DNA of 8,943 nt from a virus (Duplodnaviria; Heunggongvirae; Uroviricota; Caudoviricetes). Made by a program: the position numbers and the translations under genes. Shown here piece by piece: positions 2,633 through 3,597 of this stretch. Every line of letters starts with the position of its first letter. Positions within the stretch are counted from its first letter, which is position 1. The notes beneath the pieces were generated by a model. The model was not told where the DNA came from and did no database searches. It was given only the letters and a program-made list of their open reading frames with translations. The DNA is taken from IMG/VR virus record IMGVR_UViG_2563366853_000003, positions 1-8,943 of that record; one strand, 5' to 3'.

Positions 2633-3406
2633 TCAAAAATTAGGTGAGTAACGGACCGGGGACATAGCTCCTTTTTTTCTTAATTCATCTGGTATTTTTT
2701 TTCCAAGATAAAGATTTGCTATTTCAGGTGGGGCTTCTCGACCTTCAAAACCATAGCGAGAACTTTGTGTTGCCTCAAAGTCAGGATCTTCGTCCCAGTA
2801 TTTCATCGTAGGGAAATTTTCACGTGTTGATTTGAGCCATTTATCAGCAATGAAAACTCCTCGAACGATCCCCCTTACAGTAGCAAGAATGACTTCTGCT
2901 TGGCTGGCGCGAGAGACATTAATGCGCCAGCTAAATCGAACCGCATCATAAAGCTCTGAATCCTTTGCACTTCTGTTAACGGAAATCATTAATGCTTTAT
3001 GATGAAATGTTATGGTTTCGGGTTGATATGTTGCTATCAACTCTTTGACATGCGCGGCGCCGAATTCATTGCTGCCAGCACCATTCATGATATTCGTTAA
3101 CCCAGGGTAGGCATCAATAAGTGCTGCTTCAACTTCGTACGCCGTCTTTTCATCAGTCATTCCGTGTCGATGGATGACATGGATAACCTCAAGTCCTGCT
3201 AACCTTATTTCTCTAATTTGCTTTAGCTTGTTGCTCAGTAACTCGTCATCATCAGTCGCTGCCACTTCACCGCGCATATGGGCAAATACGCGGTTACCTT
3301 TGCCTTTCCCTACATAGAAGGTGCTTCCGTCCCTCGGATCAATCAATCGGTATACATACCAGCCAAGGTGTTCAATTACTCCAGAAGGAAACTCAGTAAT
3401 ATCCAT
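2633..3406 (-). CDS. GIY-YIG family nuclease with about 170-aa C-terminal domain of unknown function
   Basis: N-terminus [47 protein letters not shown] carries the GIY-YIG signature (YVY...YVGKG...R..H), UvrC-N / I-TevI-like. Start chosen at ATG 3406; the alternative upstream ATG at 3457 would add 17 aa. No strong SD at either. Confidence 0.75.
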
Positions 3407-3597
3407 TTTGCAATATCTATGAATTATTTGTGAGACGTATATTAATGAACATTGCAAGGGCTCACAACCAGTAGTGTTGAGAAAACTATCGGGTAAATGA
3501 GGCTAATCCTTTGAATTTACATAGTAAAAAAAGATACTTTTCCTCATAGTGTGAGCTAATTTTATGTTTCGTTTGATGATCGGACCGGTCTCAAAAA

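Follow-up and report, generated by a model that had tools for sequence, protein, structure and literature searches.

The gene behind pinE in an e14-type Escherichia coli prophage is very probably an intact allele of the hydroxymethylcytosine-specific restriction enzyme PD-T4-3/CMoRE

In e14 of Escherichia coli K-12, the gene that follows the invertase pinE is the restriction gene mcrA, which raises the question what is encoded by the unrelated nuclease gene found at the same place in another e14-type prophage. The stretch of DNA analyzed here (8943 nt, in the following called the window) is 99.99% identical over its full length to a locus of E. coli strain A22, with one indel, and 100% identical over the searched positions 2200–4000. 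A previous sequence-only reading had proposed that the gene codes for a classical GIY-YIG nuclease fused to a C-terminal part that belongs to no recognizable family, and had offered a function in defense or exclusion as a hypothesis. The serine invertase gene pinE occupies 2020–2574 on the plus strand (RefSeq; Pfam Resolvase and HTH_7), and the nuclease gene follows it in convergent orientation, as had been read. On the minus strand, an uninterrupted reading frame covers 2633–3457 and would yield 274 amino acids when counted from a TTG codon. The true start is the ATG at 3406, 17 codons into this mechanically delimited frame, so that the coding sequence comprises 2633–3406 on the minus strand, with 257 codons and a stop codon. 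The RefSeq coding sequence WP_000355484.1, with the product name "LEM-3-like GIY-YIG domain-containing protein", corresponds exactly to these positions, and the same initial methionine is common to the RefSeq entry, the crystallized PDB constructs and the family consensus. Judged by these starts, the TTG-started upstream extension (3407–3457, minus strand) is most likely a noncoding 5' leader.

The identity of the protein emerged from several collections. The PADLOC model for PD-T4-3 (PDLC04031) aligned to residues 1–256 at profile positions 1–255 of 256 (E = 2.4e-140), PHROG 5356 was matched with E = 2e-143, and in the comparison with solved structures all 257 residues were covered by PDB entries 9U75 and 9U8D (E = 3.7e-172), which represent PD-T4-3 from E. 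coli O157:H7. This enzyme was renamed CMoRE in the study from which these structures and the additional structures 9U7U and 9U7Z originate (Liu et al., Nat Commun 2026; PMC12923530). The O157:H7 and window proteins share 98.4% identity and differ at 4 of 257 positions (T51A, E55D, Q169K and N197H), while the identity to CMoRE from APEC O1 (9U7U/9U7Z) is 85% over 257 residues. None of the four substitutions affects a residue that was named as functional, and E55D preserves the acidic character; all the named residues, Y17, Y19, Y31, R39, V92, L96, Y127 and the acidic run, are retained in the window protein (PMC12923530). Because T51 and E55 lie in or beside the autoinhibitory loop, activity or stringency could nevertheless differ slightly between the two alleles. 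On the strength of this near-identity, the gene at 2633–3406 very probably represents an intact allele of PD-T4-3/CMoRE, a single-protein type IV restriction enzyme specific for hydroxymethylcytosine (hmC). The earlier proposal of a solitary, possibly modification-dependent defense nuclease was therefore right, as indicated by the PADLOC match and the near-identity to a published enzyme acting on 5hmC and 5ghmC (PMC12923530), yet it had already been tested and published. The biology of the nuclease is known in depth, with crystal structures available for a protein of 98.4% identity, and the remaining novelty is modest, consisting of the possible PUA-like ancestry of the modification sensor and the mobility of a repeat-bounded cassette.

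The N-terminal domain (residues 1–111; 3074–3406, minus strand) is a GIYxY-YIG nuclease domain, in which Y17, Y19, Y31, R39 and E93 can be read and the motif itself extends over residues 17–43. The assignment to the GIY-YIG nucleases was confirmed by Pfam PF22945, the LEM-3-like subfamily (residues 28–110; E = 2.1e-14), whereas the attribute "classical" was slightly off, since the general Pfam GIY-YIG model remained under its cut-off (E = 0.067; 13.9 versus 22.6 bits). GIY-YIG families were the only ones matched by the protein in Pfam, and an HNH nuclease domain was absent. Besides the three tyrosines of the motif and R39, an alignment of 50 homologues revealed a near-invariant glutamate, E93, which on this basis is the putative catalytic Glu. 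Also retained is the negatively charged loop between helices α2 and α3, represented by D52-D53-D54-E55 (3242–3253, minus strand) in the window protein and by DDDD in the O157:H7 protein, from which alone its autoinhibitory function is known.

For the C-terminal domain (residues 112–257, including Y127; 2636–3073, minus strand), the impression that it cannot be assigned by sequence proved accurate: these approximately 146 residues matched no Pfam or NCBIfam family, the same result was obtained when 50 homologues were scanned against Pfam at E ≤ 10, and an NCBIfam search with the protein did not return a family. Structure comparison with this region nevertheless gave an answer, since the fold matches the 5hmC-binding domain of 9U75, and the "unassigned" domain is thus the modification sensor of the enzyme and not a homing module. 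The authors of the structures described the sensor as a distinct fold and did not find homologues by sequence or structure (PMC12923530). In our comparisons, the modelled domain consistently, though weakly, matched the folds of PUA-like readers of modified bases (ASCH, EVE, YTH and VcaM4I), all with scores in the gray zone, so that a PUA-like relationship of the sensor appears plausible but unproven. PUA-superfamily type IV enzymes (VcaM4I, MspJI with its SRA domain and the N-terminal domains of archaeal McrB) are, together with the EVE, ASCH and YTH readers, among the closest known systems. If the sensor were indeed PUA-like, CMoRE would join an evolutionary series with VcaM4I, MspJI and archaeal McrB, and the site for a flipped base might be the canonical pocket with the invariant residues Y153, R157 and W160 instead of the site at the domain edge that binds free 5hm-dCTP. 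In a set of viral structures, the sensor domain was also found fused to a PD-(D/E)XK nuclease (BFVD A0A8S5N646, Myoviridae sp.; Foldseek E = 1.8e-9, 22% identity, TMq 0.61), indicating domain shuffling of the sensor, which fits a portable module.

PD-T4-3, first isolated from ECOR68, came to light in a functional selection across the E. coli pangenome (PMC9519451). Expressed from their native promoters, the O157:H7 and Klebsiella alleles decreased plating of T2, T4 and T6 approximately 10^5-fold in the absence of abortive infection, whereas the APEC O1 allele gave weak defense from its native promoter and performed much better under a T7 promoter (PMC12923530). T4 containing hmC was sensitive to CMoRE, whereas T4 containing unmodified cytosine escaped; correspondingly, the purified enzyme bound (in EMSA) and cleaved DNA with 5hmC or 5ghmC but not with C or 5mC, and Mg2+ or Mn2+ was required (PMC12923530). 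Cleavage follows the pattern CN11/N9G with 2-nt 3' overhangs, needs two modified sites and is without strict sequence specificity (PMC12923530). CMoRE is a tetramer organized as a dimer of dimers, and the exchange V92S/L96S abolished both oligomerization and defense; defense and cleavage were likewise lost in active-site mutants of the nuclease, which relies on the GIYxY-YIG tyrosines (Y17, Y19 and Y31) and a catalytic Arg and Glu (PMC12923530). When the four acidic loop residues of the O157:H7 enzyme were replaced by alanine (mutant 4A), unmodified DNA was cut and the protein was toxic (PMC12923530). The C-terminal domain binds 5hm-dCTP via the main chain of Y127, with the ligand located at the edge of the domain, where there is room for bulky groups (PMC12923530). 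In the natural isolate NILS69, PD-T4-3 was one of just two systems with measurable activity (bioRxiv 10.1101/2024.12.20.629700).

For the window allele, a mechanism can be proposed from the O157:H7 protein. The enzyme would form a tetramer, again as a dimer of dimers, in which each C-terminal domain serves as a reader of 5-hydroxymethylcytosine or glucosyl-5hmC and one dimer recognizes a pair of modified cytosines with a spacing of about 21 bp. The N-terminal GIYxY-YIG domains, with Y17, Y19, Y31, R39 and the conserved Glu, would then cut between the modified cytosines at CN11/N9G in the presence of Mg2+ or Mn2+ and leave 2-nt 3' overhangs. The acidic loop D52-D53-D54-E55 would cover the active site and bar unmodified or 5mC-containing host DNA, so that a methyltransferase or immunity partner would not be needed. 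Incoming DNA of T-even phages would be degraded directly, without abortive infection, and both the lysogen and the prophage would be protected. A methyltransferase domain was absent from the window ORFs that were scanned with Pfam, and the layout of a nuclease and a modification reader in a window devoid of a methyltransferase is that of a type IV enzyme. The gene is also solitary in other genomes, where its neighbors vary from pinE and an ImmA/HTH pair to tfa and a type II restriction-modification system or pinE and an AraC gene.

As a rival reading, a free-standing GIY-YIG homing endonuclease resembling T4 SegA-G or I-TevI, which would spread by cutting a specific site in related phages, deserves consideration. 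Like I-TevI and the Seg proteins, PD-T4-3 combines an N-terminal GIY-YIG fold with a compact, mobile, phage-associated gene, and the gene indeed moves as a compact cassette. A weak PHROG match to "homing endonuclease" (phrog_314, E = 0.0021) points in the same direction, and jumbo-phage homologues with 38–45% identity are annotated as "putative homing nuclease", although these labels are unverified annotation. In contrast to I-TevI and Seg, PD-T4-3 has neither a sequence-specific DNA-binding tail nor an intron or conserved gene as target, and its nuclease domain carries an extra Tyr and an acidic lid; NUMOD, IENR1 and HTH DNA-binding modules were not found by Pfam at E ≤ 1. The gene resides in a prophage cargo slot devoid of an intron or intein context, its homologues likewise occur as prophage cargo, the C-terminal domain corresponds to the 5hmC-binding domain of 9U75, and the published phenotype is one of restriction, with cleavage that depends on modification and not strictly on sequence. 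The homing reading is hence extremely improbable and was rejected on account of the missing homing modules, the nature of the sensor and the modification dependence of cleavage.

Two further readings concern what PD-T4-3/CMoRE does in A22 and which DNA it recognizes. The gene could be an intact but silent or attenuated passenger, ineffective in situ as a result of poor native expression or of a loop weakened at T51/E55. Consistent with poor expression, the consensus promoter scan (9-of-12 threshold) passed nothing on the minus strand for the gene; a candidate sigma-70 promoter with 8 of 12 matches (TTGTGA, 17-nt spacer, TAATAT; 3444–3472, minus strand) was read by eye. The weak defense conferred by the APEC O1 allele from its native promoter (PMC12923530) also fits a passenger, as does the annotation of several structural genes of the surrounding prophage in A22 as frameshifted, which suggests that the prophage may be decaying. 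PD-T4-3 itself is intact, however, and its 90%-identity cluster contains 1045 member sequences. Moreover, the O157:H7 locus, whose allele is strong from the native promoter, shares the upstream region (95% identity over 1938–3600), and deletion of PD-T4-3 sensitized the natural isolate (bioRxiv 10.1101/2024.12.20.629700). Taken together, we consider a silent passenger improbable. More probable, but still doubtful, is a target range wider than hmC, in which several bulky major-groove modifications, such as the carbamoylmethyl-adenine introduced by Mom or arabinosyl-hmC, are read and hypermodified DNA is restricted in general. In its favor, the Capnocytophaga homologue PD-T4-3Capno was shown to be modification-dependent and to degrade Mu DNA with carbamoylmethyl-adenine (PMC12366544), and CMoRE exhibited mild activity on the arabinosylated DNA of Bas46/47, in line with the tolerance of the edge ligand site for bulk (PMC12923530). 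The Capnocytophaga homologue is only 48% identical, however, and resistance to Bas46/47 by the E. coli enzyme was very mild (PMC12923530). A wider target would in any case extend the explanation by PD-T4-3/CMoRE and not replace it.

The genomic setting supports the view that the gene occupies a cargo slot. In A22, a largely complete prophage of the e14 type lies upstream; it has an invertible tail-fiber segment, a baseplate and tail resembling those of Mu, and genes named ymfK, ymfT, ymfL, ymfR and ymfQ. A 20-nt inverted repeat (75–94 and 1939–1958; 95% complementary) flanks two opposed sets of tail-fiber and assembly genes, and its two copies presumably serve Pin as crossover sites for inverting this host-range segment. 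The PD-T4-3 gene is AT-richer than the tail-fiber module, as had been noticed, albeit modestly (43.4% versus 46.8% GC; pinE, 49.7%). The prophage is integrated at thrW in E. coli, with thrW and the adjoining integrase at its other end. A 3' fragment of thrW (tRNA-Thr) is found at 8405–8456 on the plus strand, where it agrees with the genome's own thrW over 52 nt and includes an exact 25-nt tRNA-Thr match at 8426–8450 where none is expected by chance. As this fragment marks attR, PD-T4-3 is the first gene of an accessory region of approximately 5.9 kb that extends from pinE to attR.

That this is the slot of mcrA in e14 was borne out by the alignment with K-12, in which positions 1720–2576, including pinE, are 93% identical and homology ends at 2576 with the pinE stop codon, mcrA being the next gene in K-12. 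McrA targets 5mC and 5hmC. RefSeq names it as a methyl-directed type IV enzyme, and EcoKMcrA is, like PD-T4-3, a solitary modification-dependent type IV nuclease in the slot after the pinE stop. It differs, however, in having an unrelated HNH nuclease and another reader domain, so that the two enzymes are analogous and not homologous, and mcrA is co-directional with pinE whereas PD-T4-3 is convergent. The CMoRE locus of O157:H7 is likewise situated directly after pinE, but within a degraded e14-like prophage, whereas the window prophage, an e14 relative inserted at thrW, is largely complete and has further cargo after the cassette. Comparison of gene neighborhoods across related prophages showed differing occupants, in agreement with the suggestion of a variable cargo slot: a 432-aa hypothetical protein with more ORFs and a RES-family NAD+ phosphorylase (L004 and L009; 6608–7906 and 4608–5906), two hypothetical proteins with an FRG-domain protein (L010; 4514–8370), or a DUF4145 protein (L012; 4404–5099). 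In some prophages the slot is empty, and a DinI-like gene and integrase or the chromosomal dacD come next. The 432-aa protein, the RES phosphorylase and the FRG-domain and DUF4145 proteins may be regarded as possible further defense candidates.

The repeats that had been reported to bracket the gene are real. Copy A (2574–2610; 37 nt, 89% identical to copy B) forms the left edge of the cassette and the first 10–22 nt of copy B (3595–3692; 98 nt) its right edge, and a third copy, C (6265–6362), is 82% identical to B over 98 nt. A and B are direct repeats that flank PD-T4-3. A synthetic query composed of copy A and the rest of copy B gave a single uninterrupted match directly after pinE in hundreds of genomes, from which it follows that the unit of about 100 nt is the native sequence 3' of pinE, preceding a convergent DinI-like gene; in the window, the cassette splits this unit and is flanked by the duplicates. 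Where the cassette occurs in genomes without pinE, homology extends exactly from 2574, where copy A begins, to 3603–3616, which takes in the first 10–22 nt of B, indicating that a unit of approximately 1.04 kb bounded by AAACCGCAGGC... moves between unrelated prophages. In a lambdoid prophage that occupies ssrA in strain Ecol_AZ146, for example, the cassette comes after the tail-fiber assembly gene, beside a type II restriction-modification system. PD-T4-3 lies in the variable slot right after the invertase stop, as part of a moron-like cassette (about 1 kb) with copies of a conserved prophage sequence of about 100 nt at its ends. Between the convergent pinE and PD-T4-3 genes, copy A can form a hairpin bordered by an A-run and a T-run (−17.6 kcal/mol on one strand and −15.1 kcal/mol on the other; z-scores −2.2 and −2.0). 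It may act as a terminator in both directions; the promoter and terminator scan did not flag it.

The unit of about 100 nt was also found beside dinI-like genes and at the ssrA att core. In the window, the last 29 nt of tmRNA (ssrA; 6243–6271, minus strand), 100% identical to K-12, abut copy C as a remnant att core, and positions 6078–6271 are 95% identical to the ssrA junction of the cassette-bearing lambdoid prophage of Ecol_AZ146. The ssrA end and this junction suggest that part of the accessory region originates from an ssrA-integrating phage; the region 6078–6455, with an ssrA 3' end inside a prophage integrated at thrW, looks like an attP-like remnant of such a phage. An origin of the repeats as tRNA/att duplications by one integrase, as in tandem integration, was rejected, as only copy C has the ssrA core and copies A and B diverge inside the T-loop. 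RNA genes were not detected in the window at Rfam gathering thresholds or by ARAGORN, and Rfam at permissive thresholds yielded just a 17-nt tmRNA fragment and terminator-like noise. A strong GC-rich hairpin (6084–6125; 19-nt arms, 89% complementary), bordered on each side by runs of A and T, follows a gene with a BRO-N domain; it resembles a bidirectional terminator and accounts for spurious Rfam matches to leaders and sRNAs.

The remaining cargo includes further genes of interest. An ImmA/IrrE M78 metallopeptidase and XRE-type HTH pair (4097–5011, minus strand, and 5318–6079, plus strand) resembles CapP/CapH (PADLOC capP, 5e-15; capH, 6e-11); it is divergent from the BRO-N gene and could be a DNA-damage-responsive switch for neighboring cargo. 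Beside attR, a gene at 6711–7757 (plus strand) encodes a 348-aa protein, in which about 130 N-terminal residues without a family precede a trypsin-like S1 peptidase domain (Trypsin_2, 1.7e-17). Weak matches to defense protease domains (RT-Protease_XI, 6e-13; LmuA; HamA) were obtained, and the gene is a candidate for an uncharacterized defense gene. Behind attR, positions 8605–8943 (plus strand) encode the Arm-DNA-binding N-terminus of a P4-type integrase annotated as truncated, and the vat autotransporter island lies beyond it in A22, which places the prophage on top of an older island at thrW.

PD-T4-3 is widespread. The gene was detected in 931 of 5426 complete E. coli genomes, approximately one in six, mostly at 95–99% nucleotide identity, and a search with the protein gave 6562 clusters at E ≤ 1e-5, with full-length relatives at 55–60% identity in distant phyla. 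Full-length homologues comprising both domains also occur in jumbo phages (Serratia phages Moabite and 2050HW, Pseudomonas OBP and Klebsiella N1M2), where they may be directed against phages with hypermodified DNA that infect the same cell. We tentatively propose, as an idea with somewhat less than even chances, that the sensor is a highly diverged PUA-like member of the ASCH/EVE/YTH/SRA type and that the unit of about 100 nt is a module-boundary recombination sequence by which defense cassettes are shuttled between unrelated prophages.

The window gene should be annotated as the 5hmC- and 5ghmC-specific type IV restriction enzyme PD-T4-3/CMoRE, and not as "LEM-3-like GIY-YIG domain protein" or "hypothetical". 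Its presence in roughly every sixth complete E. coli genome bears on the host range of therapeutic T-even phages. With several of its occupants uncharacterized, the post-invertase slot of e14-like prophages is a useful hunting ground for defense genes.
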